In this document: piece by piece, positions 8,196 to 60,631 of the stretch
Layout: each line of letters begins with the position of its first letter
How positions within the stretch are numbered: position 1 is the stretch's first letter
Virus record (IMG/VR): IMGVR_UViG_3300045988_183636
Direction: 5' to 3' (one strand)
DNA: 64,000 nt
From: a virus
Program-made: the position numbers and the translations under genes
The notes under the pieces: generated by a model
Database searches by the model: none
The model's input: only the letters and a program-made list of their open reading frames with translations
What the model was told of the DNA's origin: nothing

Positions 8196-8621
8196 CTATT
8201 TTGTATACTGATTCTGTATATACTGGCGCACAGTTTCTTTGCTCATGTTCCCAACGGTACCCATGTAATAGCTGTGTGACCACAGGTGCCCTCCCCACAT
8301 CTTTGCTTCTTTGATCTCCGGGTGGTTTATGAAAAAGATCTTTGCACTATGGCCCTTGAGATTTTTTACTACATCTGTTGCAGAATACTTTGGCTTAAAA
8401 CTTAGCATCATATGGACATGATCTTCCATAACTTCGATCTCTTCGATGCTGATGTCACTTTTCCCGGCGATATCCAGAAGGATGGATTTCATTTCTTCCA
8501 CAAGCTGTGGAGTCATAAAAATCTTATTCCTGTACTTCGTGACCCACACCAGACGATAGTGGAAGTTGTAAACATAATTCCGTTCATAAACGGCACCTTC
8601 AATGCGTGGTTTTCTTTTCAT
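8196..8621 (-). CDS. tnpA: IS200/IS605 TnpA (HUH Y1 transposase)
   Basis: HVHMMLSFKP HuH motif and YR..W.TKYR N-terminus; start taken at MKRKP with a GGAG RBS. Confidence 0.75.
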   Translation of the reverse strand: MKRKPRIEGAVYERNYVYNFHYRLVWVTKYRNKIFMTPQLVEEMKSILLDIAGKSDISIEEIEVMEDHVHMMLSFKPKYSATDVVKNLKGHSAKIFFINHPEIKEAKMWGGHLWSHSYYMGTVGNMSKETVRQYIQNQYTK

Positions 8622-8731
8622 ATGCATCACTCCTTTTATTTTAAAATAGCATATGTGTCTGTTGAATTCAATGTTCATATGTGCTATAATTAACCCAAAC
8701 ATAAGTTTGCTTTTGAAGGAGGTGAAAATCC

Positions 8732-9994: not shown

Positions 9995-10185
9995 AAAATA
10001 TAAGAACCCATAGTTTGACAACTCACTATGGTAACCGTCCTCTAACTGGCGGGCCTCCACCTGCTTTCCTGTGGGAAAACAGGCGAGCCTGCTGTATCTG
10101 GGTAAGCTTTCCTATAGGTGCATTTCATGTTTCTTTATAAGGGATTCCACCTTACGGAGAGGCTCCTGACATCGTCAGGAGTAGT
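9995..10185 (+). ncRNA. putative omegaRNA (reRNA) / right-end region of the IS605 element
   Basis: structured GC-rich region between the tnpB stop and the RE hairpin, which is where TnpB guide RNAs are encoded in this family. Confidence 0.35.
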
Positions 10186-10586
10186 TGACCTGGGACGATG
10201 TGACTCTCCCAAGAGAGTCCACCCGGTTGACAATGAGCTACGTTCCGCAGGGAGGTAACTGGAAGGATGTTCCTCCGGAAATCCATAAATTTGGACCGGC
10301 AACGCACTCTGATATTTACCAACGCCTTGCATGGGATCAGCCATCGCCTACCCTGGTAAACTGGAGGAAAATCAATCTCACACATCCAGAGGAAAACCGT
10401 ATTCTTAATGTATCCGAAGCGGCAGCGCTTATGGGACTCCCAAAGGAATTCAAAGTTTTCGGATCAACCTTAAACGCGAAACAGCAGCAGATTGGAAACG
10501 GTGTAACTCAGGCAATTGGAAGATTTGTTAAAAAGTATGTGCTACAAGCCTTGAACATGGATGGGAAAATAGTCAAATTTGCATAA
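10185..10586 (+). pseudogene. 3' fragment of a C5-cytosine DNA methyltransferase (motifs IX-X only), truncated at the IS right end
   Basis: RILNVSEAAALMGLP..F...GS....QQIGNGV (ENV-less, GN(G/A)V motif X); no N-terminal catalytic motifs upstream; TTG start only. Confidence 0.6.
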
Positions 10587-21787: not shown

Positions 21788-24091
21788 ATGAATCAGAATA
21801 AGAAGATAGCAGAGAAAAAATCAAGACCATACCAGCAGGAATGCATTGATAAGGTAGACAGCTTAAAAGAAGGAAGATTCCTGATTGCTCTTGCAACAGG
21901 GCTTGGGAAGACATGGATCTTCTCCCACTTTAAGAGATACGGAAGGGTACTTATTCTTTCACACAGGGATGAACTGGTCAACCAGCCGAGACGGTATTTC
22001 GACTGTAGTTTTGGCGTAGAAAAGGCAGAAAACCATTCCAATGGGGAAGAGGTAGTATCTGCGAGTGTTCAGACACTCAGCCATGACTCCCGTCTTAAGC
22101 AGTATAAGCCGGACGATTTCCACACGATCATCATTGATGAGGCGCACCACGCTGCCGCACCATCCTATAAGAAGATCTTAAATTATTTTTCCGGCGCTAA
22201 GCGTGTAATCGGTGTCACGGCAACTCCGAAGCGTGGCGACAACGTCCGGTTAGATGACGTTTTTAACGAGATTATTTATGCAAAGGATCTTCGTTGGGGG
22301 ATTAAAAATAAATATTTAAGTCCGGTGCACTGCCGGGAGGTCCGTGCAAAATATTCCCTGAAAGGCGTAAAAAAATCTATGGGGGATTTTAATGTATCCG
22401 ATTTGGACGGTTGTATTACGGAAGAAGCTGTAATAAGTGTTGCAAAAGTTCTTACAGACTGTCTCCAGGAGAATCGGCATATTCTTATTTATTGTACTAC
22501 TGTCAGAACCTGTAATTTCCTGAAGGCAGTAGTTGACAAACTGCTCCCGGAAAAAGAACGTGGCAGTGTTGCTGTTTTATCAGGGAAAACACAGGAAGAA
22601 GATAGAAAAAATATGCTTGATGGTTTTATGAACGGGAGTGTCCGCGCCATTATTAACTGCATGGTTTTAACAGAAGGTACAGATCTTCCTATTGCGGATA
22701 CCATTATCAACTTCCGGCCGACGTGCAACGCGTCTTTGTATCAGCAGATCATCGGAAGAGGAACCCGGCTCTATGAAGGTAAGGAAAACTGTTTATGCAT
22801 TGATATTCTTCCAGATGATGGCAGCGGGACAAGAAATCTGTGTACAGCTCTTACTCTTTTTGGTATAGATGCAAAACTTCTTGGAAAGAAACAGTCTCGA
22901 ATGCTTGAAGGTGAGATTGATCCGCTTGAGATTAGCGATGAAATTGCAGGACGATTTGCAGAACTTACAAAGGCGTATGAATATCGGTTGGAGCAGGTTA
23001 ATCGCTTTGTGCAGGAGCAGGAAGAAATTATATCTTCTGCGCGGAAGAAACCACATGCAGATTTAAGCGACCTTGCGCATGCAGTAGATAAATATAATTC
23101 AAAGAAAATGGATGAATTCCAAAATGATTATGATTTTCTTGGAATGGATTACTCACTTATGCCGGATACGGAACATCGTTATTGTATCAAACCTACATGG
23201 AATGACCATATTTACCTTGCTGATCCAGATGTTATGGGTAATACAACAGTTACGTTTGATCTTACTGCCAGTGTCGGGAAATATTATATCGGTGAAATGA
23301 AAATGCAGGATGCAATTTCATTTGTTCATGATTTTTGTATGGTATCTCCAGATTATATGAAATATTCCTGGAACGTGGCATTACAAGATGAATGGGGGAA
23401 AATAAAAGCAACTGAAAATCAAATTGGACGTCTTATGAATGAGTATGACGGGTTTCACAAAGGAAATATTAACAAACTTCAAGCATCCAGACTGATTGAT
23501 CTTGCCTCTCGTATTTCGAAGATGAAGGCAGAGGGGAAAATGATGCTTATTACACCAAGAATGCAGGAAAAAACAATTGATAAAAAAAAGAAAATGTTTA
23601 AGGAAATACTCGAAAAGGAACTGAGGGCAAAAGAGCAGGGGCGTAGTGAGTTTGGAGAATTCCAGTCGAAAATCTTTGCTTTGGCAGAAAAAAAGAAAAA
23701 AGACGAAGAGAAATTAAAGAACCAAAAGCCTTTGGAAGAAGAAATGCTCGAAAATGGGGCGATTACAGTTAATATTGCTGTTTTTAGTTCAAAAAAAACA
23801 GCAAGCGATGCGCAGATAAAATTTCTTGGTAATTTAAAAGATAAATTAAAAAACAGAGGAGTGGCTGTCGATAAAAAAATTCCTTATATAGGAATGGGAG
23901 CAGAAGAGGCAAGTGTATATATTACTATATTAAAAACGCTTGTAGATCGTAACGTAGACCTTATAAAATATGGTAAAAAAATTTATTTTAATCCAAATAC
24001 AATCATGAGTGTTGTATTAAAACTAAAGGACACTTCATCCAGAGAAATTAAATGTTGTATCCCGTTCGAAAAAATAGAAGAATTGAGATAA
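21788..24091 (+). CDS. SF2 DEAH-box helicase (ResIII-like) with a long Lys-rich C-terminal extension
   Basis: motif I ALATGLGKT, motif II DEAHH, motif III VTATP, motif VI QIIGRGTR; no HD nuclease domain. Confidence 0.75.
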   Translation: MNQNKKIAEKKSRPYQQECIDKVDSLKEGRFLIALATGLGKTWIFSHFKRYGRVLILSHRDELVNQPRRYFDCSFGVEKAENHSNGEEVVSASVQTLSHDSRLKQYKPDDFHTIIIDEAHHAAAPSYKKILNYFSGAKRVIGVTATPKRGDNVRLDDVFNEIIYAKDLRWGIKNKYLSPVHCREVRAKYSLKGVKKSMGDFNVSDLDGCITEEAVISVAKVLTDCLQENRHILIYCTTVRTCNFLKAVVDKLLPEKERGSVAVLSGKTQEEDRKNMLDGFMNGSVRAIINCMVLTEGTDLPIADTIINFRPTCNASLYQQIIGRGTRLYEGKENCLCIDILPDDGSGTRNLCTALTLFGIDAKLLGKKQSRMLEGEIDPLEISDEIAGRFAELTKAYEYRLEQVNRFVQEQEEIISSARKKPHADLSDLAHAVDKYNSKKMDEFQNDYDFLGMDYSLMPDTEHRYCIKPTWNDHIYLADPDVMGNTTVTFDLTASVGKYYIGEMKMQDAISFVHDFCMVSPDYMKYSWNVALQDEWGKIKATENQIGRLMNEYDGFHKGNINKLQASRLIDLASRISKMKAEGKMMLITPRMQEKTIDKKKKMFKEILEKELRAKEQGRSEFGEFQSKIFALAEKKKKDEEKLKNQKPLEEEMLENGAITVNIAVFSSKKTASDAQIKFLGNLKDKLKNRGVAVDKKIPYIGMGAEEASVYITILKTLVDRNVDLIKYGKKIYFNPNTIMSVVLKLKDTSSREIKCCIPFEKIEELR

Positions 24092-24265: not shown

Positions 24266-24499
24266 GTTGCACCACGCAAGGGTGCAGGGGTGAAATATTA
24301 TACTGAATCGTCGCTGCCTGCATAGATATAGTTGCATCCCTTATGGGATGTATGGGTTGAAATTCAATAGAAACAGATGCATTCGGAGGTGTTACAAGTT
24401 GCACCCCCGCAAGGGGTGCATGGGTTGAAAATAAGAAATGGTAGGAAGGAATTCAGATATGAACATTAGTTGCATCCCGCAAGGGTGCAGGGGTGAAGT
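24266..24499 (+). CRISPR. CRISPR mini-array 1 (type I-C-like repeats, 4 divergent repeats, 3 spacers)
   Basis: GTTGCACCACGCAAGGGTGCAGGGGTGAAAT / GTTGCATCCCTTATGGGATGTATGGGTTGAAAT / GTTGCACCCCCGCAAGGGGTGCATGGGTTGAAAAT / GTTGCATCCCGCAAGGGTGCAGGGGTGAAGT; spacer 2 is shared with array 4. Confidence 0.7.
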
Positions 24500-26151: not shown

Positions 26152-26408
26152 AGCTATGACAATATTAAATTTTATCATTGAGTGTTGGAAGAATTCTTGC
26201 GACGAAAAAATCAAAAGGAATTATGTTGAATCCCTTGCTAAAGTGGCGGTTTCAGTGGCCATCATTATTATATCTGTTTTATTATATTTGCACATATGAA
26301 ATGTATAACGGAAATGTATATTTTGGGGGAGGAGGGGTAAGTACAAACATAATTTTTAAAAAAGTAGCGCAAAGAAAGAATTCACTAATGCAGAAGGGGC
26401 GTAACAAT

Positions 26409-28231
26409 ATGATCAACGGAGAATTAGTTGTAGATAATTTTGCGGGCGGAGGAGGAGCTTCCACAGGAATTGAACTTGCTACCGGATACAGCGTAGACAT
26501 AGCTATTAACCATGATCCGGAGGCCATTAAGATGCATAAAGTAAATCATCCCAATACAAAACACTATTGTGAAAACGTATGGGAGGTTGATCCAGTAAAA
26601 GCCTGCAAGGGGCACCCTGTCGGTCTTGCATGGTTTTCTCCGGACTGTAAGCATTTTTCCAAGGCCAAGGGGGGAAACCGGTAGAAAAGAATATTCGCGG
26701 TCTTGCGTGGGTTGTGCTTAAATGGGCGGCACTTGTCAGACCAAGAGTTATCATGCTTGAAAATGTGGAAGAATTTCAGACATGGGGACCATGTATTCCT
26801 ATCAGGGATAAAGATACAGGACGCGTTATTGTCAGCATGGTAGGAAGGCATGACAGAGAGAAGAACGAGCCGCGTACGAGGGTTGCAGATCCAGGAGAAG
26901 TTGTTCCTGTGGATCGCCAGATATTCCAACCAGATCCTAAAAGGAGCGGCCAGACATACAAAAAATGGAGAAAGCAGCTAGAAGCACTTGGATATGAGAT
27001 AGATACAAAGGAACTTGTAGCAGCTGATTATGGCGCACCTACTATGAGAAAGAGATTCTTTATGATTGCACGGTGTGATGGCAAGCCGATTGTCTGGCCG
27101 GAACCAACACATGGACCGGCAGATAGTGAAGAGGTAAAGGCAGGACTGTTAAAACCATACGTTGGAGCGTATACGCAATTGGATTTTTCTCTTCCTTGCC
27201 CGAGCATATTTGATACGGCAGAGGAAATCAAAAGGAAATATGGAATACGCGCTGTACGTCCATTGGCGCAGAAAACAATGGATCGAATCGCAAGAGGATT
27301 GAAAAAGTTCGTATTAGACAATCCGGAGCCGTTTATTATCCAATGCAATCATGGTGGAGAGCGTAGACAAAACGACATCAAAGAGCCTTTACCTACTATT
27401 ACTGGAAAACACGGATATGGAATTGTGGAACCTAAGATTGTTCCATATATGGGAACCAATACAACAAATCATCCAGGTGGAAATTGTAAAAATCCTATAC
27501 ATACAATTACAACAGGAAATCAACAGTGCCTTATCAGCCCAACGCTGATTCAGTATCATTCCGAAACATCGAAGGATGAAGTCAGAGGCCAATCGATTGA
27601 AGATCCGATAATGACCGTGGATGGTTCGAACCGATACGGATTGGTCACGTCGTTTCTACATAAATATTATGACGGAGGATACACTGGAGCTGGTGATACT
27701 GTCGAAAATCCGTTACCGACAGTAACATCCTGGGATCATAACAGTCTGTGTGCAGTTAATCTGATCCAAATGAATAATCATTGCGATGGAAGGGACGTGA
27801 AGGAGCCAATTCCAACAATCACAGCAGGCGATGGTCATTTCGGAGAGGTTAGAGCATTTCTGATCAAGTATTATGGTCAGGGAACTGGACAGGATGTTAA
27901 GGAACCTTTGGATACGGTTACATCAAGAGATCGATTTGGTTTAGTTACAATTAATGGTACCGACTATAAGATCGTGGATATCGGATTGAGGATGCTTGAA
28001 CCGAAAGAACTGTATGGATGCCAGGGATTTCCAGATGATTACATCATAGACCGCGATTACACAGGGAAAAAATACCCAAGAAGCGAGCAGGTACGCAGGT
28101 GTGGAAATGCTGTATGTCCTCCGATTCCGGCTGCTCTTGTAAAAGCAAATCTTCCGGAATTATGCGTAGCGAAACGCACTGGGAATATGAAAATTCGTGA
28201 GGAACAGACCGGGCAGCTTAGATTTGCATAA
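26409..28231 (+). pseudogene. multispecific C5-cytosine DNA methyltransferase with tandem target-recognition domains, interrupted by a frameshift at a G6 homopolymer (26670..26675)
   Basis: motif I DNFAGGGGAS and motif IV SPDCKHFS in ORF 26178..26684; RGLAW..RP..IMLENVEEF (motif VI) plus repeated P.PT.T TRD-like modules and motif X GNAV in ORF 26714..28231; the two frames join if the run is G7. Confidence 0.75.
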
Positions 28232-32961: not shown

Positions 32962-33108
32962 TGCTTTTATGGTGAGAGTTTTATTTTTGATCATGGCGAA
33001 ACGATACCAAAGAAAGTCCGGTTTGCAGTGTACGAAAAATGCAACCACCGGTGCAATTTTTACTTCGAAAAGATCGGACTGGATATGGCGTAAGTTTTCA
33101 AAAAATCT

Positions 33109-33139
33109 TTGACGATTTTTCAAAAGGCGCAATATGTAT
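33109..33139 (+). promoter_or_regulatory. class-1 promoter
   Basis: ttgacgatttttcaaaaggcgcaatatgtat. Confidence 0.6.
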
Positions 33140-33142
33140 AGT

Positions 33143-33283
33143 GTAAAGGTCATAAACCGAGCTGCCAGGGTTACCGGCTGGCAGAAAATCCTTTCGAAAA
33201 ATGTTTACGTTCCGGGAAATCCCCGGAAAGGATAGTGGGTACGCAGCGCAAGTTATTCCGGGTTCGACTCCCGGATATCCTTT
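33143..33283 (+). ncRNA. conserved structured 5' leader, copy B (tRNA-like acceptor/T-arm minihelix at its 3' end)
   Basis: same ~95 nt core as A and C; AAGGATA-(hairpin)-CCGGGTTCGACTCCCGG-ATATCCTT forms an acceptor-stem + T-arm (TTCGACT loop) module. Confidence 0.5.
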
Positions 33284-33318
33284 TTCAAAATTGCAGGAAA
33301 AATGTGGAGGAAAAGAGA

Positions 33319-33976: not shown

Positions 33977-34456
33977 GTGGATATAAATGCAGAATACCAC
34001 AAAAGGGCATCAAATCTTGGCATGGAGAAGCAGAGGACTTACCTTCAGTATGAGATCTCCAAGCCAGATGTCATCAGAAAAGATCTTGAGACCGCAAAAA
34101 AGAGGCTGGAAAAGGCAAAAGAAAGAAATTTTAAAACGTTGGATGAGTGGGAAGAAAAAATTGAAGCTTATACGAAAGTGTTGGAAGACAGCAAAGTATC
34201 TTCCTTGTTTTACAATGATATTTCTAACGCCATTTCGGACGGAACAGCACAGTGCCGTATCTGTACCTTCGTTTGGCAGGGTAAATGGAAATATACGGAA
34301 AATATTTCCCTTGGAGTGTGCGTCGTGATCAAGCACATGGGGTACACCTACATTTTTGGCACAAGTCCAGACAGCCAGTATTCTCCATGTTTTGCAGTAT
34401 GGGAAAGCGAAGGAGAACCAGAGCTGGAAGAAGAAAACTACCTTATAGTCAAGTAA
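33977..34456 (+). CDS. hypothetical protein (GTG start)
   Basis: GGAG 5 nt before the GTG; 159 aa. Confidence 0.4.
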   Translation: MDINAEYHKRASNLGMEKQRTYLQYEISKPDVIRKDLETAKKRLEKAKERNFKTLDEWEEKIEAYTKVLEDSKVSSLFYNDISNAISDGTAQCRICTFVWQGKWKYTENISLGVCVVIKHMGYTYIFGTSPDSQYSPCFAVWESEGEPELEEENYLIVK

Positions 34457-34518
34457 GAAAGAAGCCGGGGAATCCCGACTTTTCTGCTGCATTGTGTGTA
34501 TATTTTAACGCCGCCTGC

Positions 34519-34591
34519 GGGATTCGAACCCGCGGATAAAGAGTTCAAAGCTCCCTGCGTTAACCTTTTCGCCAAGGCGGAGCACACCCGG
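34519..34591 (-). tRNA. tRNA-Gln (anticodon UUG), no encoded CCA
   Basis: manual fold: 3-bp D-stem, anticodon loop CUUUGAA, T-arm GCGGG-TTCGAAT-CCCGC; 1:72 mismatch. Confidence 0.6.
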
Positions 34592-34592
34592 A

Positions 34593-34660
34593 AGGACTCG
34601 AACCCTCGTTACCGGTTTTGGAGACCAGTTTCTGTCCATCAGACAGGTGCATAACAGGCG
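34593..34660 (-). tRNA. tRNA-Trp (CCA), compact 68-nt form with a reduced D-arm
   Basis: anticodon arm CUGGU-CUCCAAA-ACCGG matches Trp; T-arm GAGGG-TTCGAGT-CCTTC; D region is only a 4-bp stem with a 5-nt loop; acceptor stem has two G.U pairs. Confidence 0.45.
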
Positions 34661-34664
34661 ATAA

Positions 34665-34735
34665 TGGAATCGAACCATTGTTTTCTGAGTCAGAATCAGA
34701 TGTCTTACCATTGAACGAATCGCCCAGTATCCCCA
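34665..34735 (-). tRNA. tRNA-Gln (CUG)
   Basis: anticodon loop UUCUGAC; 3-bp D-stem; T-arm AATGG-TTCGATT-CCATT. Confidence 0.6.
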
Positions 34736-34737
34736 AA

Positions 34738-34812
34738 GGGACTCGAACCCTTAACCGACAGATTAGAAATCTGTTGCTCTTTCCAATTGAGCTATGGGGA
34801 TATATAGCGCAG
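34738..34812 (-). tRNA. tRNA-Arg (UCU)
   Basis: D-arm GCTC..GAGC; anticodon loop UUUCUAA in stem ACAGA/UCUGU; T-arm AAGGG-TTCGAGT-CCCTT. Confidence 0.65.
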
Positions 34813-34818
34813 ACACCG

Positions 34819-34907
34819 GGGATCGAACCCGGACAGCGGGTGTGCCGCATGCCACATTAGCAGTGTGGAGGGGTACCATTTACCTTTATATGTCTGCATA
34901 AGAGGCA
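34819..34907 (-). tRNA. tRNA-Ser (GCU), long variable arm
   Basis: 89 nt; anticodon loop CUGCUAA in stem CCACA/UGUGG; T-arm CCGGG-TTCGATC-CCCGG. Confidence 0.55.
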
Positions 34908-34912
34908 TCGGA

Positions 34913-34984
34913 GGGGATCGAACCCTCGCCTTCCGGGTTGCAGCCGGACGCCTTCGCCGTTTGGCTACGATGCCATATAATTCT
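34913..34984 (-). tRNA. tRNA-Cys (GCA)
   Basis: anticodon loop CUGCAAC in stem UCCGG/CCGGA; T-arm GAGGG-TTCGATC-CCCTC. Confidence 0.6.
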
Positions 34985-35014
34985 TCCCGATAAGAGAAGA
35001 TGAGCGCTGGGGCA

Positions 35015-35098
35015 GGGAGTCGAACCCTGATATCCTTTCGGAATGACGGTTTTCAGGACCGTTGCTTTACCAGTTGAGCCACCACAGCAAAAATAAAA
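35015..35098 (-). tRNA. tRNA-Ser (UGA)-like, long variable arm, unusual C33
   Basis: 84 nt; anticodon loop CCUGAAA; variable stem UCC-gaaa-GGA; T-arm CAGGG-TTCGACT-CCCTG. Confidence 0.5.
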
Positions 35099-35333
35099 GC
35101 ATACACCTCTCAATCGAAAGATGTATGCTTTGCAATTCCAGGTATTTCCAATATTCTCCCGGAAATTTCCCTACAATGACCACATTTCTTTCAATTTGAG
35201 ACAATATTTATTTGCACGACAACTACGCCAGATACATGACTGCGACTGACTCATACTTGCCTGTGAATATTGTCTCATTACTGCTGTAATCATTGATTTT
35301 CCCTTCCTTTCCTTGGTTTTCTTGAATATTTAG

Positions 35334-35407
35334 TGTGTCTGGTGGGACTTGAACCCGACGACCCCACGATTAAAAGTCGCGTGCTCTGCCAACTGAGCTA
35401 CAGACAC
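35334..35407 (-). tRNA. tRNA-Lys (UUU)
   Basis: canonical fold: acceptor GTGTCTG/CAGACAC, D-arm AGCTCAGTTGGCAGAGC, anticodon loop CUUUUAA. Confidence 0.7.
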
Positions 35408-35412
35408 ATAAG

Positions 35413-35484
35413 CGGATCAGGAGGGAATCGAACCCTCATCTTCCGGTAGACAGCCGGATGTACTAGCCGCTATACTACAGATCC
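35413..35484 (-). tRNA. tRNA-Asp (GUC)
   Basis: anticodon loop CUGUCUA in stem UCCGG/CCGGA; T-arm GAGGG-TTCGATT-CCCTC. Confidence 0.6.
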
Positions 35485-35488
35485 ATAA

Positions 35489-35561
35489 AGCTCCCGTCCG
35501 GCTTCGAACCGGAAACCTTCTGATTACAAGTCAGATGCACTACCAGTTGTGCTACAGGAGC
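35489..35561 (-). tRNA. tRNA-Thr (UGU)
   Basis: D-arm GCACAACTGGTAGTGC; anticodon loop CUUGUAA; T-arm TCCGG-TTCGAAG-CCGGA. Confidence 0.65.
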
Positions 35562-35567
35562 AGGAAC

Positions 35568-35638
35568 ACTTCCGACGGGTGCTGCCCCGCTATCTCCGCC
35601 GTGACAGGGCGGTGACTCTGTTGTTTGTCCTCGGAAGT
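35568..35638 (-). ncRNA. non-canonical tRNA-like element (8-bp acceptor-like stem, anticodon-like arm CCGCC-CUGUCAC-GGCGG, 4-bp T-like hairpin, no D-arm)
   Basis: ACTTCCGA...TCGGAAGT closing stem; sits inside the tRNA array at tRNA spacing. Confidence 0.35.
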
Positions 35639-35645
35639 AAATAAG

Positions 35646-35727
35646 TGCGCCGGGGAGGACTCGAACCTCCGGTGTTTCTTTGTGGCTGATTTACAGTCAG
35701 CTGCTGTCGCCTCTGAGCCACCGACGC
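35646..35727 (-). tRNA. tRNA-Tyr (GUA), long variable arm
   Basis: 82 nt; anticodon loop CUGUAAA in stem GCUGA/UCAGC; T-arm GGAGG-TTCGAGT-CCTCC. Confidence 0.6.
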
Positions 35728-35732
35728 ATAAG

Positions 35733-35804
35733 CTGGTCCGGAGGGTCTCGAACCCTCAACGCCCCGGTTAACAGCCGGGTGCTCTACCATTGAGCTACGG
35801 ATCA
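35733..35804 (-). tRNA. tRNA-Asn (GUU)
   Basis: D-arm AGCTCAATGGTAGAGC; anticodon loop CUGUUAA; T-arm GAGGG-TTCGAGA-CCCTC. Confidence 0.65.
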
Positions 35805-35805
35805 G

Positions 35806-35877
35806 AGCATGTGACGGGTCTCGAACCCGCCCGTCCTGCTTGGAAGGCAGGTGTGCCGCCAACAACACTTCACATGC
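35806..35877 (-). tRNA. tRNA-Gly (UCC)
   Basis: anticodon loop CUUCCAA in stem CCUGC/GCAGG; T-arm with TTCGAGA loop. Confidence 0.6.
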
Positions 35878-35942
35878 ATGCGGATAAAAGAAGTGCCTGT
35901 TTTCTCTTATCCATTCAGTTTTTTTACCGCATCGCTGCGGAG

Positions 35943-36014
35943 TGGACAGGAGTGGTAACGATCCACCCTGTAAGGATTTTCAGTCCTTCGCTAATCCATC
36001 TCAGCTACCTGTCC
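35943..36014 (-). tRNA. putative tRNA-Phe (GAA) with a non-canonical T-loop (ATCGTTA)
   Basis: perfect 7-bp acceptor GGACAGG/CCTGTCC, U8, anticodon stem AAGGA/UCCUU with loop CUGAAAA; lacks the TTCGA T-loop signature. Confidence 0.4.
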
Positions 36015-36460
36015 ATGGCTTTTTCTGCAATAAAAAAGCCGCATCAAGAAATTTCCTCTTCTCTCTGCGGTCATCTGCGTTTTGCAATATTTCGGTTTTA
36101 AGTGCCTGGTTTAAAATCGAAATCGACCGCGGGAAGGTGTATCATAATAGTTCTGTCCCCATGTTTTCCCGGATTTTGAGCATGAGAAACTAAACATATT
36201 GCTGAAATCGCCGTATGTTCTACAATCATTATTAAAATTTTTACTACTCATCATCTTTAACATGGTTTTCTTTTCCTTTCATTTTAATTAATGCTGGATA
36301 AACAAAAAGCCCGTCACTTAACTCAAAGCTACACATCCAAATAGCTCTGAGTTAAAAGACAGGCACTTCTTTTATCTCATGCACCTATCATATCATACTG
36401 ATCGTGAAGTGTCAACAGGAAATTTAAAAAAGGTTATTTTTGGTTATTTTGGTTATTTTT

Positions 36461-36500
36461 CAAAATAAAACAAAATAAAACAAAATAAAACAAATAAAAA
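36461..36500. repeat. short tandem repeat (AAAACAAAAT)n x4
   Basis: caaaataaaacaaaataaaacaaaataaaacaaataaaaa. Confidence 0.6.
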
Positions 36501-38105: not shown

Positions 38106-38134
38106 AAAATATTTCAAAACATTTCCAAAAACTT

Positions 38135-38167
38135 TTGACGATTTTTTAAATGGCGCAATATGTATCA
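38135..38167 (+). promoter_or_regulatory. class-1 promoter
   Basis: ttgacgattttttaaatggcgcaatatgtatca. Confidence 0.6.
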
Positions 38168-38168
38168 T

Positions 38169-38316
38169 GTAAAGGTCATAAACCGAGCTGCCAGGGTTAT
38201 CGGCTGGCAGAAATCTTTTCGATATTTGTTTACACTCCGGGGAAACCCGGAAGGGGTAGTGAGGACGCAGCGTGTGCTGTTTCCGGGTTCGATTCCCGGG
38301 TATCCCTTTTGACTGC
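38169..38316 (+). ncRNA. conserved structured 5' leader, copy C (tRNA-like minihelix GGGTA..CCGGGTTCGATTCCCGG..TATCCC), part of a ~420 nt 5' UTR
   Basis: near-identical to copies A and B over ~95 nt, then a hairpin plus acceptor/T-arm module. Confidence 0.5.
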
Positions 38317-41715: not shown

Positions 41716-42390
41716 ATGGAAAAAGAAAAAATGGGAGTGAAACTAAAAGTCTGGGGAGATTACGCATTGTTCACCAGACCAGAACTGAAAACTGAACGGT
41801 ATACATACGATGTGATGACACCGTCGGCGGCTAGAGGAATTCTGGAATCTATCTACTGGCATCCGGGACTTCGGTGGTATGTAGACAAGATTCATGTATT
41901 AAATCCGATTGCCACTACGAGCGTGAGAAGAAATGAACTTCTCAGTAAGATACCAAAGTCAAATATGCTGCAGGCATACAACGGCGGGGATGTGAAACTG
42001 TATAACTCGTCAAGAGACGATATTATCCAGAGGGCATCTGTTATTCTCCGGGATGTCTGCTATGTGATTGAGGCGCATTTTGAAATGACAGGGAAAGCGA
42101 GCCCAACAGACAGCCCGGCAAAGTTTATAAGTATCTTTAACAACAGGGCAAGAAAAGGGGCATGTTATTCGATGCCGTATTTTGGTGTAAGGGAATTCCC
42201 GGCACACTTTGAACTCTGCGAAGGAGATGAAAAGATCCCATCCTACTATGAAGGACTTCCGGATAAAGATCTCGGGCTGATGCTTTATGATCTGGATTAC
42301 TCCTGCGGTAGAGATATCCAGCCAATGTATTATCATGCGATTATGAAAAACGGCGTTATTGACGTTGGGAACAGTGAGGTGCTTCGATGA
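41716..42390 (+). CDS. cas5: Cas5c (Cas5d) of type I-C CRISPR-Cas
   Basis: KLKVWGDYALFTRPELKTERYTYDVMTPSAARGILESIYWHP matches the Cas5d N-terminal signature; start may be the second ATG at 41731. Confidence 0.8.
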   Translation: MEKEKMGVKLKVWGDYALFTRPELKTERYTYDVMTPSAARGILESIYWHPGLRWYVDKIHVLNPIATTSVRRNELLSKIPKSNMLQAYNGGDVKLYNSSRDDIIQRASVILRDVCYVIEAHFEMTGKASPTDSPAKFISIFNNRARKGACYSMPYFGVREFPAHFELCEGDEKIPSYYEGLPDKDLGLMLYDLDYSCGRDIQPMYYHAIMKNGVIDVGNSEVLR

Positions 42391-44126
42391 TCCTTCAGTC
42401 ACTTGTGAAATTATATGAAACACTTGCGGATCAGGGAAAAGTGTCCCGTCCTGGCTGGTGTAATGCAAAGGTATCCTATGCGGTGGTTTTAAACCATGAT
42501 GGGACGATTAAAGATATTGTTTCCGTGAAACAGAAAGTGAAGAGAGGAAAGAAGACTGTTGAAATTCCAATAATTATGCAGGTTCCAGAGATGGTCACCC
42601 GCGCTAACAACATTGCCTCCAGCTTTCTCTGCGAAAATGCAAAGTATCTCTTTGGGATTGACGAAAAGATGAGTTTGCGTACACTGGAATGTTTTAAGGC
42701 GGCAAAGAAAAAACATCTTGATATTCTTGATGTTGTGGATTCACCTGTAGCACAGACGGTATGTAACTTTTTCCGTTCATGGGATCCGGAACAGGCGTTG
42801 GATCAACCGGCTGTTGCAAAACTTGCAGAAGAGTTTTATAAAGGCGGAAACCTCGTTTTTGAAGTAGATGGGGAATATGTGCATGATAATGAAGAAGTCC
42901 GCAGGGCATGGATGGATTACAGCAGTGTACCATATGAAATGGTAACTGGAAGATGCCTTATTACTGGAGAGGAAGCGGAGATTGCCCGCACGCACGGGAA
43001 AATCAAAGGAGTTCCGGGAGCACAGTCATCTGGCGCGTCGCTTGTATCATTTAACGGAGCATCCCTTGAGTCTTATGAAAAAACACAGAGCTACAACGCG
43101 CCGATTAGCACCTATGCGGCGTATGCATATGTGACCGCGCTGAATTACTTGCTTTCTACGGACGGGTATCACAGCAAGGTAGGAGGTTCCATGGTGGTTT
43201 TCTGGACAGATTCCGGGGATGTGGATGATGTGAGCAGACTGCGGAAGATGATGGGAAGCATCAATGAAAAGGATCACACCCCTACAGATACGGATGAAAA
43301 ACTGTACGTCCTCTGCCTTGCACCAAATGCCGGGCGAATTGCAGTCCGGTTCTTCTATGAGGATGCGATCGGGGTAATCTGGGAAAACCTGTCCGAACAT
43401 GCCAGTCGGATGAAGATTGTAAAACCAGTATTTGAGGATCAAGAATTTATCAATATCTGGCAGATGCTCATGGAGACAGTCAACCAGAATCTTACAGATA
43501 AAACACCTGTCCCGCATATGTCAGCAATGACGTTACAGTCAGTCATTTCGGATACACCGTATCCGCAGAGTCTGTATGCAGGTGTGTTATCTCGTATCCG
43601 CGCGGAGCACAAAGGTGTTACTTACAGAAAAGCATCGATTATTAAAGCTTTTTTAATAAAGAACTACAAATGGGAGGAAGGAAAAAATATGGAAGCATTA
43701 AATGAAGGCTGTAAGGATCGGGCATATATCCTTGGAAGACTGTTTGCGGTTATGGAAAAGGCACAGAAAGAAGCAGTTGGCAATATCAACCAGACAATTT
43801 GTGATAAGTTTTACAATTCCGCGTGCACAACACCAAGATCGATCTTTCCAGTACTGATCAGGCTATCTAACAGTCATTTAAGTAAGTTGAAACGGACAAA
43901 ACCGGGGAGAGGATATTATTTTACAGCTAAAATGCAGGATTTAATGGATAAAATTCCGGTAACAGATGATGATCCGGGATTCCCGCGGCGTTTCTCATAT
44001 GAGGATCAGGGTAAGTTTGCACTTGGTTATTATCATCAGATGCGGGCGGAATATACAAGCAGTAAGTTAAAAGATAATGATTCAGAAGGTGATCAGACAA
44101 ATGCAGAGAATATGGAGGAAAACTAA
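42387..44126 (+). CDS. cas8c: Cas8c (Csd1) large subunit, type I-C
   Basis: MILQSLVKLYETLADQGKV... N-terminus; 579 aa; 4-nt overlap with cas5; position between cas5 and cas7. Confidence 0.75.
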   Translation: MILQSLVKLYETLADQGKVSRPGWCNAKVSYAVVLNHDGTIKDIVSVKQKVKRGKKTVEIPIIMQVPEMVTRANNIASSFLCENAKYLFGIDEKMSLRTLECFKAAKKKHLDILDVVDSPVAQTVCNFFRSWDPEQALDQPAVAKLAEEFYKGGNLVFEVDGEYVHDNEEVRRAWMDYSSVPYEMVTGRCLITGEEAEIARTHGKIKGVPGAQSSGASLVSFNGASLESYEKTQSYNAPISTYAAYAYVTALNYLLSTDGYHSKVGGSMVVFWTDSGDVDDVSRLRKMMGSINEKDHTPTDTDEKLYVLCLAPNAGRIAVRFFYEDAIGVIWENLSEHASRMKIVKPVFEDQEFINIWQMLMETVNQNLTDKTPVPHMSAMTLQSVISDTPYPQSLYAGVLSRIRAEHKGVTYRKASIIKAFLIKNYKWEEGKNMEALNEGCKDRAYILGRLFAVMEKAQKEAVGNINQTICDKFYNSACTTPRSIFPVLIRLSNSHLSKLKRTKPGRGYYFTAKMQDLMDKIPVTDDDPGFPRRFSYEDQGKFALGYYHQMRAEYTSSKLKDNDSEGDQTNAENMEEN

Positions 44127-45039
44127 GATGAGCACACCAATTAAGAACAGATATGATTTCGTAGTATTATTCGACGTAGAGAATGGAAATCCGAACGGTG
44201 ATCCGGATGCCGGAAATATGCCGAGAGTTGATCCAGAGACTGGCATCGGGCTTGTGACAGATGCCTGCATAAAGCGCAAGATCCGTAATTATGTGGAAAC
44301 TGTAAAAGAAGATGCAGCCGGGTTCAAGATCTATATTAAAGAGGGGGTCCCGCTGAACCGGAGTGACCTTAAGGCAGTCGAAAGTCTTGGTATTGACGTC
44401 GGTGACGACAAAAATGCACTTGAAGATGTAAAGAAGCTGAAAAAGACAGATGAAGATGTGGATCTTAAGCTCCGTGACTATATGTGTAGTAATTTCTATG
44501 ATATCCGTACATTTGGTGCTGTCTTGACTACCTTTACAAAGGCGGCATTAAACTGTGGGCAGGTACGTGGCCCGGTACAGATTGGTTTTGCAAAAAGTAT
44601 TGATCCTGTTTTCAGCCAGGATATTACTGTAACCAGAGTTGCAATCACAACGGAAAAGGATGCGGAAAAGAAAAATACAGAAATGGGAAGAAAGAGTATT
44701 ATTCCTTATGGACTTTACCGTGTGGAGGGATATATTTCTGCTAATCTTGCCCGTAAGACCACCGGCTTTTCTGAAGACGATCTGGAACTGCTTTGGGAAG
44801 CAATCATTAACATGTTTGAGAATGACCATTCCGCAGCACGCGGGAAGATGGCAGTGCGTGAGCTCATCGTATTCAAGCATAACAGCGAGCTTGGCAATTG
44901 TCCATCGTACAAACTGTTTGAAACTGTTGATGTTAAGAAGAATGATGGTGTTGAGTTTCCTCGTAAATATTCCGATTATGCAGTGACTATTCATGAGGAT
45001 GCGATTCCGGATGGCGTGACAATGACTCGCAAAATCTAA
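44127..45039 (+). CDS. cas7: Cas7c (Csd2) backbone subunit, type I-C
   Basis: RYDFVVLFDVENGNPNGDPDAGNMPR signature; RBS GGAGGAAAAC before ATG 44127 (the ORF-track start at 44077 is inside cas8). Confidence 0.8.
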
Positions 45040-49477: not shown

Positions 49478-49666
49478 AGACCTACTGATACTGCCGAGAT
49501 TGCACAAGATTACGATTTTCCATTGCAGGATATGTGAGAGATAATTTGTTGAATTAGAGGTGATTATATTGGATTTATTTGGAAGAGATTTATGGACCCA
49601 AGCAGATGAAGATTTTTTAGGTAGAAAGTGTTATTTGTTGCAAAGTACGGTTGGAAGGGGATTTTA

Positions 49667-50662
49667 ATGAATAAGTTGGAAAATTTAAAAATGGTGCTGT
49701 TTGACTTTGATGATACATTGGCTGTGCATAGTCAAGGACATCGCATAAGCGATCATCTGATGAAATATATGATAAACGTGCATTCTGGAAGTAAAGAATT
49801 ATGGAATACCTCGAAACCGAATTTACAATTAAAGAAATTCATGGATTATCTCGCCTGTAAGAACATTTCTATGGGATTGATTAGTGGAGTACATGATTGT
49901 AAAGCCGCGGAAAGAAAAATCGAATGGGTCAAAGAAAACTATGGGTATTCATTAGAGAATTATTGTGTATCCAGTCAAGAACAGAAGATGATTGAATTAT
50001 CAACCATTGCAGAGGTTAATGGATTTCATGAAAGCCAGATTGCTCTTGTTGATGACTACTATGAAAATCTCGGAAATGCTGAAAAAATGGGATTTACAAC
50101 ATTTTCTCCTATGGAAATTGTTAATTTGGTTAATTGCTTTCAAAATACAGATTTGGAAAAAATGTTGATCAGCCCTGATCCTGGGTGGGGGATAAATTTA
50201 CGAAATAAATACATATTCTGGGATATAGACGGCACTTTAGCGGAATACCGGTTTAACGGGCATGTTTCAGATCCGGAAGGTACTGATAACGGTATGAGTT
50301 TAAAAGAAATTGAGGATGGGGTTTTTCTCAAGAGAAAACCATCTTATCATATGCAGATGGTATTGTCTACATGTGGCGCGAAGCAGAACATTGTAATGGG
50401 GCACTGCCAGGTACAGAAAGAAATGGATGATAAACAGCTCTGGCTGGACAAGTATTATCCAAGTATCACAGAACGTTTACTTGTGTCGGAAGATAAATCG
50501 AAAGCAGATACCATTTTGCAATACTGTAAGGATCATGATATTAGCTTGCAAGATGTGGTATTTGTTGATGACACGATTCCATTTCTCCGCGAAGCAGAGC
50601 GAAAAGGGATTAAATCATTTCATATCAGCAGTTTTTTGGATTGGGATTTCGAAAGGAGGTAA
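49667..50662 (+). CDS. tandem HAD-domain hydrolase (paralog of 48989 plus a second HAD domain)
   Basis: FDFDDTL in the first domain, IFWDIDGTL and VFVDDT in the second. Confidence 0.6.
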   Translation: MNKLENLKMVLFDFDDTLAVHSQGHRISDHLMKYMINVHSGSKELWNTSKPNLQLKKFMDYLACKNISMGLISGVHDCKAAERKIEWVKENYGYSLENYCVSSQEQKMIELSTIAEVNGFHESQIALVDDYYENLGNAEKMGFTTFSPMEIVNLVNCFQNTDLEKMLISPDPGWGINLRNKYIFWDIDGTLAEYRFNGHVSDPEGTDNGMSLKEIEDGVFLKRKPSYHMQMVLSTCGAKQNIVMGHCQVQKEMDDKQLWLDKYYPSITERLLVSEDKSKADTILQYCKDHDISLQDVVFVDDTIPFLREAERKGIKSFHISSFLDWDFERR

Positions 50663-52906: not shown

Positions 52907-53098
52907 TTTCTTGCGGAGCAGAGCAGAGGAAGGCTCACCGGGCTCATGACCTGGGTGTCGGATGTTCGATTCCTTTCTCCGCAATTAATTTTAAAAAAGG
53001 GAGGTTATAACATGTTCTAACTGATTAAAAAACATAAACAAGCATTCGTTCAAAAGAAAGATTCGTATGTGAAAAAAGGATGGGAGGAAAAGAAAATC

Positions 53099-59920: not shown

Positions 59921-60631
59921 GTGAAACTTACCAAAATAAAAAATCCTGAATTGGCGTTTCAATATTGTAAGAAAATTGCTAAGGAAATCAATGAATTTAT
60001 ATTGCAATCTGTGGCCTTGCAGGTGTTGGAAGATAATAAACAAAAATTCTTGACGATAAAAGGATCTGATTGGCAGCACCATAATTACGCTGGTGGTTTA
60101 ATCGTGCATACCTGTAATGTAACATTAAATGCTATTTCCTTGGCCGAATTTTATAAAGAAAAAGTTAATATTGATCTTGTCAAGTTTTGTGCACTTATGC
60201 ATGATGTCGGAAAACTGTTTGATTATGAAGCGCAGCAAGAATATGTAAGGGCAAATACAGTTTCCATGAATCAGGCTTTATTAGGGCATAGTTTTGAAGG
60301 CGCCAGCTATATTTCAAAAATGTTGGAGAATGCATATTCAAAAAAAGATATTAACGTATCGAAGGATTACATATGTCATGTAGTTACACAGGTTTCTCAC
60401 TGTATAGGAGCGCATATGGATGGATTTGGGGCCTGTTCTAAACAGCAAATGTATGAAGTTCTTATTATAGGTTGTGCCGATAAAGTTGATTCCTATTTAG
60501 AACAAACTGTTGTCGATGATAATGAATATTCATTTACTATTGGAACGGGAGAAACTTTTTACAAAGCATCTGTTGATCCGAATGAAGTATTACCGATATG
60601 GGATAATCCGTTACAGGAAGATTTACAATAG
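59921..60631 (+). CDS. HD-domain phosphohydrolase (GTG start)
   Basis: H..GGLIVHT ... ALMHDVGK HD motif; RBS TAGGAGGAGAATT. Confidence 0.6.
   Translation: MKLTKIKNPELAFQYCKKIAKEINEFILQSVALQVLEDNKQKFLTIKGSDWQHHNYAGGLIVHTCNVTLNAISLAEFYKEKVNIDLVKFCALMHDVGKLFDYEAQQEYVRANTVSMNQALLGHSFEGASYISKMLENAYSKKDINVSKDYICHVVTQVSHCIGAHMDGFGACSKQQMYEVLIIGCADKVDSYLEQTVVDDNEYSFTIGTGETFYKASVDPNEVLPIWDNPLQEDLQ

Follow-up and report, generated by a model that had tools for sequence, protein, structure and literature searches.

An accessory tRNA operon on a large mobile element of the human gut, probably of the Hodor type, with leader reading frames that may gate its expression

What kind of mobile element carries fifteen transfer RNA (tRNA) genes head to tail, and how are such genes used and controlled? 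The question is raised by a 64,000-nt stretch of the IMG/VR virus record IMGVR_UViG_3300045988_183636 (hereafter the window, one 64-kb part of an element of about 350 kb), whose minus strand holds a dense tRNA array. A preliminary description had regarded this array as phage-encoded, paired with a phage CCA-adding enzyme and including three non-canonical and perhaps minimal members. The analysis reported here points elsewhere. The array is probably an accessory tRNA operon on a ~350-kb element of gut Bacillota, likely of the Hodor type, and most of its members are ordinary tRNAs; a less secure part of this reading is that the operon is gated by short open reading frames (ORFs) in its leaders.

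The array is real and has the size first proposed for it, about 15 members. Thirteen head-to-tail genes on the minus strand, from 34509 to 36014, are called concordantly by ARAGORN and by the Rfam model RF00005 at its gathering threshold, with scores of 33.1–71.6 bits for a curated cut-off of 29 bits. Two further members, a tRNA-Ser(GCU) and an Asp-like element, fill two tRNA-sized gaps and bring the number to 15; both were recovered by relaxed or mitochondrial modes of ARAGORN. The check that had been suggested, ARAGORN in its general and mitochondrial modes, found 13 genes in the general mode and added the Asp-like element in the mitochondrial one. Combining the options -mt and -ps produced about 10 false calls in 2.5 kb of coding DNA and was overly permissive, so the plain -mt call alone was used. 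The proposed right-hand end at 36014 stands, whereas the left-hand end lies at 34509 and not at 34519. Similarly, the TTCGA T-loop that had been attributed to fourteen genes is present in 12 members; tRNA-Lys has TTCAA, and neither sequence is found in tRNA-Phe or the Asp-like element. A (C)UUAU spacer recurs in most intergenic gaps. With 15 genes in 1.5 kb, the density is about 10 genes per kb. An array unit, as defined by Tran et al. (2016; PMC4758250), must contain 20 or more tRNA genes with a density no lower than 2 per kb; the density here exceeds that value, but the count of 15 stays below 20, so the locus is not an array unit in that sense. A sixteenth tRNA gene, called as tRNA-Met with anticodon CAU and G37, lies outside the array (52912–52984, plus strand, 35.4 bits) and follows an ORF for a small membrane protein.

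Judged by its predicted signals, the array is one promoter-driven operon split by terminators (Table 1). The gene upstream of it, for a 206-aa protein, ends in a terminator, and a putative sigma-70-type promoter is the sole strong promoter-like site on the minus strand from 36415 to the end of the array; the two tRNA blocks, A and B, have no promoter-like site of their own on this strand. The predicted transcript would run through a leader hairpin, ORF1, the hairpin T1, tRNA-Phe and block A, and then through ORF2, the terminator T2 and block B. T1 and T2 are placed alike, each starting about 40 nt past the stop codon of a leader ORF and ending 2–15 nt before the next tRNA. The haplotypes compared with the window include L094, L184, L193, L196 and L197, and L184, L185, L187, L193, L196 and L198 are referred to as clade 2. 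In L197, the most diverged full-length relative, the promoter hexamers are kept and the spacer and flanks differ; the inner stem of the leader hairpin has a wholly different sequence there, and the hairpin and its U-tract persist. T1 forms in all masked folds and varies among relatives only in its loop, and the stem of T2 is kept in clade 2 through a compensatory change from A-T to G-C. A 21-nt inverted repeat, I1 (35883–35903 and 36356–36376, 95% complementary), brackets ORF1, T1 and tRNA-Phe. One of its arms is the 5' arm of the leader hairpin, both arms are invariant in all haplotypes, and a third, partial copy, AAACCAGGCACTT, lies just past the ORF1 stop codon; I1 may possibly act as a long-range processing duplex. 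Just upstream of the promoter, at 36432–36499, lie AT-rich tandem repeats, three of GGTTATTTTT and four of CAAAATAAAA, which are present in the lineage of the window and absent, through a deletion of about 50 nt, from L094 and the clade-2 relatives.

The codon content of the two leader ORFs suggests how this layout might be used. The idea arose from ORF2, and ORF1 and the relatives then served to test it. Seventeen of the 39 codons of ORF2 are read by the seven tRNAs of block B downstream of it, compared with a background of 0.114 in the long ORFs of the window (binomial P = 4e-7), and ORF2 ranks first in this respect among the 314 small ORFs of the window in all six frames. Block-A codons are scarce in ORF2 (7/39; background 0.359). 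ORF1 has 37 of 49 codons served by the whole array (background 0.473, P = 5e-5) and 26 of 49 served by the block that follows it (P = 0.01), and 44 of its 50 residues are amino acids that the array serves. Glu, His, Ala and Val are absent from ORF1, as is Ile in the window's version; the Glu codon GAA is enriched in the element. The bias belongs to the reading frame, since the counts fall from 37/50 to 16/49 and 19/49 in the other frames for ORF1 and from 17/40 to 9/39 and 7/39 for ORF2. Neither ORF has a Pfam match, and no T-box or other Rfam regulatory RNA was found in the leaders.

The same composition is found in relatives with altered sequences. ORF1 of L197 differs by 30 nucleotide changes and an in-frame 3-nt insertion, amounting to about 17 amino-acid changes, and has 39 served codons, against 30.1 ± 2.8 under random change (P = 0.001). 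The ORF2 frame is intact in clade 2, where 13 of 37 residues are changed and 15–18 block-B codons are retained; the lower figure compares with an expectation of 11.5 ± 2.1 (P = 0.08). Although ORF2 as a whole is 18% diverged, its final six codons are unchanged, and both strands of the putative antiterminator are conserved. Folding of the nascent RNA predicts a duplex between these six codons and the 5' half of T2, which is lost when a ribosome stands on the stop codon.

It is conceivable, and we propose it tentatively, that ORF1 and ORF2 encode leader peptides that gauge the decoding of the codons served by the tRNAs behind each of them. Where the served codons are translated slowly, through scarce or damaged tRNAs or heavy demand, the ribosome would lag and the terminator would be bypassed, which would yield more of exactly the tRNAs that are needed; fast decoding would let transcription stop. 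ORF1, ahead of both blocks, would respond to the codons of both, and ORF2, ahead of block B, to those of block B. The operon would then not be constitutive: three internal terminator-like hairpins, two of them after leader ORFs, might gate it, although confidence in this step is lower.

An explanation without sensing is also a serious possibility, if not one to be expected: the hairpins may serve RNA processing or stability, or may terminate transcription partially and constitutively and so impose a fixed gradient of expression, and the composition of the peptides may be coincidental. The served amino acids (F, G, N, Y, D, T, K, S, C, R, Q and W) overlap with the composition of polar peptides, codon choice within amino acids is not clearly biased to the served codons, and ORF1 is conserved at the peptide level in its C-terminal half. 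The evidence for an antiterminator, which is weak for both leaders, favors this explanation and counts against attenuation: the energy of the leader-2 antiterminator duplex is matched by 18% of shuffles, and masked folds gave no robust antiterminator for T1 in leader 1. Attenuation is further weakened by the AGA and CAG codons that ORF2 keeps in clade 2 though the Arg and Gln tRNA genes are gone there. Nor was the codon bias found in any of 77 comparable small ORFs surveyed from gaps in 71 other IMG/VR arrays; this result means that the test does not fire by itself, and equally that the leader-ORF feature is not general. Points against a fixed gradient are a bias that is block-specific, with ORF2 rich in block-B codons only and poor in those of block A and ORF1 rich in both, the absence of Glu, His, Ala and Val from ORF1 despite the enrichment of GAA, and a codon composition that is maintained while the sequence turns over.

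Table 1. Positions of the tRNA genes, the predicted control signals and other features of the window
Feature	Position	Strand	Evidence or remarks
Putative sigma-70-type promoter, TTGACA, 17 nt, TG-TATGAT (extended -10)	36387..36415	-	11/12 consensus matches
5' leader hairpin and U-tract (terminator-like or 5' stabiliser)	36296..36376	-	minimum-free-energy (MFE) fold
Leader ORF1, 50 codons, good ribosome-binding site (RBS) GAAAGGAAAAG	36111..36263	-	
Terminator-like hairpin T1, CCGCAG...GAUGCGG and U6, ~15 nt before tRNA-Phe	36030..36070	-	-13.1 kcal/mol
tRNA-Phe(GAA), T-loop ATCGTTA (A54/U58 swap)	35943..36014	-	ARAGORN; Rfam 47.6 bits
Spacer with two hairpins (64 nt) after tRNA-Phe	35878..35942	-	carries distal inverted-repeat arm
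Block A: Gly-UCC, Asn-GUU, Tyr-GUA, Asp-like, Thr-UGU, Asp-GUC, Lys-UUU	35334..35877	-	spacers 1–7 nt
Asp-like element, tRNA-Asp(GUC) derivative, 72 nt, without D-loop GG or T-loop consensus	35567..35638	-	ARAGORN -mt only
Leader ORF2, 40 codons, good RBS AAGGAAAGGAAGGG	35171..35293	-	
Predicted terminator T2, 16-bp stem and U-tract, 2 nt before tRNA-Ser	35096..35131	-	-20.8 kcal/mol
Block B: Ser-UGA (C33), Cys-GCA, Ser-GCU, Arg-UCU, Gln-CUG, Trp-CCA, Gln-UUG	34509..35088	-	
tRNA-Ser(GCU), 90 nt, ~4 extra nt between acceptor and D-stem, 4-bp/5-nt D-arm	~34808..34897	-	ARAGORN -ps only; Rfam 28.3 bits (cut-off 29)
tRNA-Trp(CCA), 68 nt, reduced D-arm with 5-nt D-loop	34583..34650	-	Rfam 33.1 bits
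Predicted final terminator T3, common to convergent plus-strand gene 33977–34456	34462..34481	-	
Transcription order: Phe-GAA, Gly-UCC, Asn-GUU, Tyr-GUA, Thr-UGU, Asp-GUC, Lys-UUU, Ser-UGA, Cys-GCA, Arg-UCU, Gln-CUG, Trp-CCA, Gln-UUG		-	13 canonical calls
Class II nucleotidyltransferase with HD domain, 460 aa	3114..4496	+	Pfam PF01743, PF12627, PF01966, PF13735
NAD-ligase, BspA-type leucine-rich-repeat (LRR), LPD1-domain, helicase, methylases, TnpB, flotillin-like, PcfJ, AAA/FtsH-like and HD proteins	window		profile scans

The element that carries the operon is most likely, to judge by its genes and its distribution, a Hodor-type conjugative megaplasmid with Lachnospiraceae-like hosts and not a demonstrable phage. 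Hodor elements are conjugative megaplasmids of the human gut with a mean size of 356.8 kb, occurrence in thousands of samples and Bacillota affinities; they carry a CRISPR-Cas system of type I-C whose array is degraded, frequent TnpB and 44.6–47.1% GC (guanine plus cytosine), were initially classed with the huge phages and hardly occur in plasmid databases (Yuan et al., bioRxiv 2026, PMC12934698). The earlier assignment to a phage found no support. None of the 49 window proteins, drawn from 64 kb of the ~350 kb, matched a terminase, portal, capsid or tail family in Pfam, PHROGs or NCBIfam, and a few of them match PHROG families of unknown function. No match was obtained in IMG/VR with the unique D-region 22-mer or two neighboring proteins as queries, and DNA searches of INPHARED and PLSDB, for close or distant relatives, returned generic single-tRNA matches only. 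Exact copies of the cca protein occur in 1458 assembly blocks and those of the array's 159-aa neighbor in 2605. The assemblies with the exact proteins are, among the matches listed, all from the human gut, on many contigs of 200–320 kb and on contigs of 351,810 and 360,627 bp, and a near-identical variant of the 206-aa neighbor lies on a contig of 360,869 bp. A size above 300 kb, a human gut habitat and a high prevalence are thus all found, as in Hodor. Cas5c, Cas8c and Cas7 of a type I-C system are encoded at 41716–45039, the scanned ORFs of the window include no cas3, cas4, cas1 or cas2, and this reduced set would fit the reduced I-C system reported for Hodor (PMC12934698).

Membership in this group has points against it as well. 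Its defining genes, Rep_3, ParA/ParB/ParM, VirB4/VirD4, a MOBH-like HD relaxase and sortases, would lie beyond the 64-kb window and were all missing from it, and no plasmid marker was found in the 49 scanned proteins; an HD-domain protein (59921–60631) and a helicase (21788–24091) are present and are only candidates for a relaxase pair. The GC content of 40.4% lies below the 44.6–47.1% of Hodor and, measured on one 64-kb part of the element, is a weak test. The flotillin-like neighbor is 70% identical to a copy in an Agathobacter metagenome-assembled genome and about 52% identical to chromosomal copies of Lachnospiraceae, which points to this family as the host. Flotillin homologues gave no relatives of the array, the copies in GTDB being chromosomal host genes without arrays; the Agathobacter contig with the 70% identity starts inside a tRNA-Cys gene and yields no array.

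The tRNA genes and the CCA-adding-type enzyme are both located on the same element, as the preliminary description stated. The predicted 460-aa protein has a PolyA_pol head (PF01743, 1.3e-35), an RNA-binding region, an HD domain and a C-terminal tRNA_NucTran2_2 domain, and its closest solved structures are the CCA-adding enzymes 6ibp and 1miv (1e-43 to 1e-40, residues 19–217). Its best NCBIfam match is the CCA tRNA nucleotidyltransferase NF009814, with 237 bits below the cut-off of 290, and TIGR02692 scores 221 below 439. These equivalog cut-offs separate CCA-adding from A-adding and poly(A) enzymes; all of them being missed, a CCA-adding activity can only be inferred, and it is the most likely one. 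None of the 15 members encodes CCA after the discriminator, which agrees with the earlier observation. The connection then drawn, that the lack of CCA fits the cca gene, does not follow, for CCA is likewise lacking in 7 of 7 chromosomal tRNA genes of Lachnospiraceae and in about 1004 of 1014 phage tRNA genes of IMG/VR, and the cca gene lies 31 kb from the array on the opposite strand. The missing CCA is the background state and does not tie the array to the enzyme; any host with such tRNA genes must possess a CCA-adding enzyme of its own.

How unusual are the unusual members? Three had been called non-canonical, and their structures are real: a 68-nt tRNA-Trp, a fold without a D-arm and a tRNA-Phe with an ATCGTTA T-loop. 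The doubt cast on Phe and Trp was not borne out. The stems of tRNA-Phe have four compensatory double changes in L197 with the loop unaltered; the T-stem co-varies among relatives, and in clade 2 the loop is changed only at position 57, which is still a purine. Among 717 distinct tRNAs from 71 IMG/VR loci (L001–L071), 29 have non-canonical T-loops, and the ATCGT type, a coordinated exchange of positions 54 and 58, is the commonest (9/717, in tRNAs for His, Ile, Trp, Thr, Val, Phe and Asn, one of them a Phe-GAA whose loop is identical). The tRNA-Phe is thus a recurrent, functional T-loop variant. The D-loop of tRNA-Trp belongs to a class of at most 6 nt that is found in 9 of the 717 comparison tRNAs, and the sole other tRNA of at most 70 nt among them, on an IMG/VR contig, is also a Trp-CCA. 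One pair of the Trp anticodon stem is changed from C-G to G-C in L094 and clade 2, and the gene is a functional compact variant retained by compensatory evolution.

Two other members, the tRNA-Ser(GCU) and the Asp-like element, appear from their predicted structures to be degenerate. In tRNA-Ser(GCU) the 7-bp acceptor stem is perfect, the discriminator is G, the variable arm is long and the T-arm is normal, and a CUUAU spacer delimits the 5' end of the gene as in neighboring members; search programs shift or reject it because about 4 extra nt precede a D-arm of 4 bp and 5 nt. It is the most conserved member of block B, with 3–4 changes in 90 nt, none of them disruptive, in a neighborhood that differs by 7–20%. 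The Asp-like element goes unmatched in Rfam even at E ≤ 10. Its MFE fold consists of a 7-bp acceptor stem, an anticodon hairpin and a T-like hairpin without a D-arm (z = −2.9 compared with shuffles), with perfect acceptor, anticodon (5-bp) and T (5-bp) stems. The elbow features, D-loop G18G19 and the T-loop consensus, are present in the members other than Phe and the Asp-like element; the latter has a D region, AAACAACAGA, without GG and a T-loop GCAGCA(C). It retains G73, G34-U35-C36, C38 and G10, and a 20-mer that covers the anticodon arm and the start of the variable loop is identical in 71 IMG/VR loci, all of them ordinary tRNA-Asp genes, which identifies the element as a tRNA-Asp by descent. 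Its acceptor and anticodon arms are invariant across all haplotypes, whereas the D region and the T-loop (7 or 8 nt) vary, one T-stem pair becomes G-U, and a proposed 3-bp D-stem is broken in L197. The divergence of about 5% is similar to that of canonical tRNAs, as opposed to about 20% for ORF1. Neither the Asp-like element nor tRNA-Ser(GCU) has compensatory changes among the haplotypes compared, whose divergence is low; each has loop changes and one wobble change. For the Asp-like element, the roles earlier suggested for the reduced members, as minimal tRNAs, decoys or processing punctuation, are candidate readings. Elements of this sort are also found elsewhere, as 8 of 94 tRNA-sized gaps in other arrays hold hidden tRNA-like elements missed by the standard search, compared with 2 of 177 control segments.

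Anticodon loops depart from the norm in two genes with otherwise canonical calls. The tRNA-Asp(GUC) at 35413–35484, 77 nt downstream of the Asp-like element, has a canonical body and the unusual anticodon loop CUGUCUA (U37, A38); the Asp-like element has the standard tRNA-Asp loop CUGUCAC, and both loops are conserved in all haplotypes. The tRNA-Ser(UGA) of the window (35005–35088) has C33 in place of the near-universal U33.

Comparison of relatives shows that the array is accessory and in flux. Compensatory pair changes were seen in tRNA-Phe (4), Tyr (3), Ser-UGA (2) and Lys (1), and also in Cys, Gln-CUG and Trp; ten strain-level loci are almost identical and so of no use for covariation. The genes for Arg and Gln-CUG are cleanly missing from L094, where the T-arm of Gln-UUG is decaying; Arg and both Gln genes are missing from clade 2, and the array of L186 ends after Lys. 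The clade-2 equivalent of Ser(UGA) has a Ser-type body, with a long arm and G73, an anticodon UAA, which reads a Leu codon, and two stem mismatches; it is either a copy in decay or, potentially, a Leu-to-Ser misreader. In L085 (GCA_046997445.1, 7151–8925) a 1.8-kb insertion sequence (IS) with a DDE transposase (DUF772, DDE_Tnp_1) lies in T2, at about 35127 of the window, with an 11-bp target duplication, GAAAGATGTAT. Homologues of the neighboring genes were also tried as guides to further arrays and rejected: those of the 159-aa neighbor at 60–73% (P0007, P0008) proved to be frameshifted near-identical copies, and those of the 206-aa neighbor at 62% and 55% (L178–L183) have no tRNA genes nearby.

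Several other observations concern the element at large. An IS200/IS605-type unit (8196–9994, TnpB at 8732–9994) adjoins fragments of C-5 cytosine methylase genes (10185–10586, 26178–28231); it is missing or elsewhere in other strains (L072–L079), and this difference indicates active IS traffic in the element. Repeats of about 190 bp (33095–33285, 38122–38310) and about 100 bp (24329–24430), 84–90% identical, flank the array on both sides. The HAD domain of "Swiss Army Knife" RNA-repair proteins is matched, weakly or in part, at 49628–50662 of the window and at 15773–16234 of the distant relative L178, which also carries a bacterial RNase A-like gene. These are hints that RNA damage or repair functions may be present on such elements.

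What the tRNAs would do is suggested by codon usage, for which the preliminary description had called for a comparison between element and host. Chromosomal loci of Lachnospiraceae served as host proxies; these are guessed hosts, which weighs against firm use of the result. Of the 13 anticodon families, 11 serve codons used more often in the element than in the proxies (47.4% vs. 40.6% of all codons). Served codons make up 11 of the 16 most enriched codons and 1 of the 16 most depleted, with an odds ratio of about 4.9 for the enriched set, and this enrichment supports codon compensation. The precursor would be cut at the (C)UUAU spacers by the RNase P and RNase Z of the host, CCA would be added by the enzyme of the host or of the element, and the tRNAs would supplement the decoding of mostly A/U-ending codons, which the AT-richer element uses more than its hosts.

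Against this accessory supply of tRNAs, three other explanations of the array were weighed. The one closest to the preliminary description is improbable, namely that a phage array has co-adapted with a phage CCA-adding enzyme, its CCA-less genes depending on cca and its reduced members being functional minimal tRNAs. The element does carry the array and a cca-type gene, CCA is indeed not encoded, elements of this type were first catalogued among huge phages (PMC12934698), and a few window proteins match PHROG families; but hallmark genes are missing from the 64 kb, the element was found neither in IMG/VR nor in INPHARED, host-type chromosomes and phage arrays alike normally lack encoded CCA, which signals no special dependence, and cca lies far off on the other strand. 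It is somewhat less improbable, though still unlikely, that the locus is a counter-defence kit, in which the tRNAs would replace or outlast host tRNAs cut by anticodon- or tail-cutting nucleases, the tRNA-Asp with U37 and A38 would be a resistant version, the Asp-like RNA a decoy and the HD-domain CCA enzyme a means of 3'-end repair. Phage tRNAs evade tRNA-targeting defences (PMC10264068, PMC11555353), and tRNA tails are an immune target (PMC12851939). Classic nuclease targets (Lys-UUU, Tyr, Asn, Asp and Arg-UCU) are in the set, the anticodon loops of Asp and Ser-UGA are unusual at U37 and C33, the Asp-like element keeps G73, G34-U35-C36, C38 and G10 and evolves no faster than true tRNAs, and the weak HAD matches in the window and relatives are of an RNA-repair type. 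For a conjugative plasmid, however, the need to escape abortive-infection nucleases is less obvious than for a lytic phage, natural lineages are losing several members, and oddities of the anticodon loop are few.

A further explanation, also rather unlikely, is that the array is mostly neutral cargo, acquired horizontally and now in slow decay, with the Asp-like element and tRNA-Ser(GCU) as pseudogenes and the leader ORFs as ordinary small genes or chance ORFs, each having a terminator of its own. It draws on the lineage deletions, the anticodon switch with its stem mismatches, the degenerating T-arm of Gln-UUG and the IS insertion, on the lack of compensatory change in the Asp-like element and tRNA-Ser(GCU), on the cryptic tRNA-like elements that are common in other arrays, and on the 3 of 26 Anabaena array genes that are pseudogenes (PMC8421152). 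The lost Arg and Gln genes, the UAA anticodon of Ser, the decaying Gln-UUG and the IS in T2 fit dispensable cargo as well as they fit a tuned system, and to that extent they tell against tuning. Cargo without function is at odds with the compensatory or wobble-preserving evolution of most members, with the intact long stems of the Asp-like element, which changes in loops only and diverges far less than ORF1, with an ORF1 frame that survives an in-frame insertion and keeps its odd composition (P = 0.001), and with the position of blocks A and B behind strong predicted terminators without promoters of their own. An accessory operon that supplements decoding remains the reading we prefer.

Among known systems, the closest is the trn operon on a megaplasmid of Anabaena PCC 7120, which is normally silent, is induced when translation is impaired and is controlled by the repressor TrcR (PMC8421152, PMC10272220). 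It likewise consists of supernumerary head-to-tail tRNA genes in one megaplasmid operon, with horizontal spread and a few degenerate members, and the array described here is a short version of these horizontally mobile "long tRNA arrays". The long arrays of the Anabaena type have 23–43 genes and belong to cyanobacteria, whereas this one has 15 and belongs to Bacillota; there is no sign of a repressor of the TrcR kind here, and internal terminators follow short ORFs instead. The tRNA clusters of T4, T5 and huge phages, some of them with cca, are also dense, CCA-less and biased to codons preferred by the element, and they too have occasional non-canonical T- or D-loops and extra tRNA-like RNAs. 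The T4 cluster also encodes the stable RNAs C and D, whose function is unknown. Large phages differ in that no virion or packaging genes were found here, and the codon bias of the leader ORFs was seen in none of the 71 IMG/VR arrays. Hodor resembles the element in its human gut habitat, its size of about 350 kb, its occurrence in thousands of samples, its I-C Cas genes, its TnpB and its Bacillota affinity; the tRNA genes and the CCA-adding enzyme have no counterpart in the Hodor preprint, which does not mention either (PMC12934698), and the GC content of the window is lower.

Leader-peptide attenuators control the trp, his, leu, thr and pheST operons of enterobacteria. The proposed leaders resemble them in having a short, RBS-preceded ORF dense in particular codons, an intrinsic terminator and then the genes that would be regulated; in leader 2 a duplex between the ORF end and the 5' half of T2 is also predicted, which in the modelled folds would be blocked by a ribosome at the stop codon. 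They would differ from known attenuators in their targets, which are tRNA genes and not biosynthetic or synthetase genes, in sensing several codon families at once, and in alternative structures that are without statistical support. The Asp-like element has its nearest parallel in the armless or elbow-less tRNAs of animal mitochondria, as it is found by the mitochondrial mode only and is without G18G19 and T-psi-C contacts. Unlike these, it has the full length of 72 nt, lies on a bacterial mobile element and has a canonical tRNA-Asp with the same anticodon close downstream.

Against these baselines, the features that first drew attention, an array without CCA, a cca gene and reduced members, are largely ordinary. 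What is new are the ORF-plus-terminator modules that mirror the codons of the downstream tRNAs, the elbow-less tRNA-Asp derivative and the presence of such an array on a newly described class of gut megaplasmids. The Asp-like element and tRNA-Ser(GCU) offer test cases for how much drift a bacterial tRNA tolerates in processing and charging. If the leader reading is true, ribosome-mediated attenuation would act on tRNA genes themselves and give a mobile element a self-tuning tRNA supply; to our knowledge, no earlier case is known of tRNA genes under attenuation that senses their own codons. Such a simple feedback loop would be a useful part for synthetic biology, and it would offer a direct mechanism by which cyanobacterial accessory arrays could become active during translational stress. 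Among large mobile elements of the human gut this one is one of the most widespread, and its tRNA operon and CCA-adding-type enzyme suggest that plasmids of about 350 kb may, like huge phages, partly equip their own translation.

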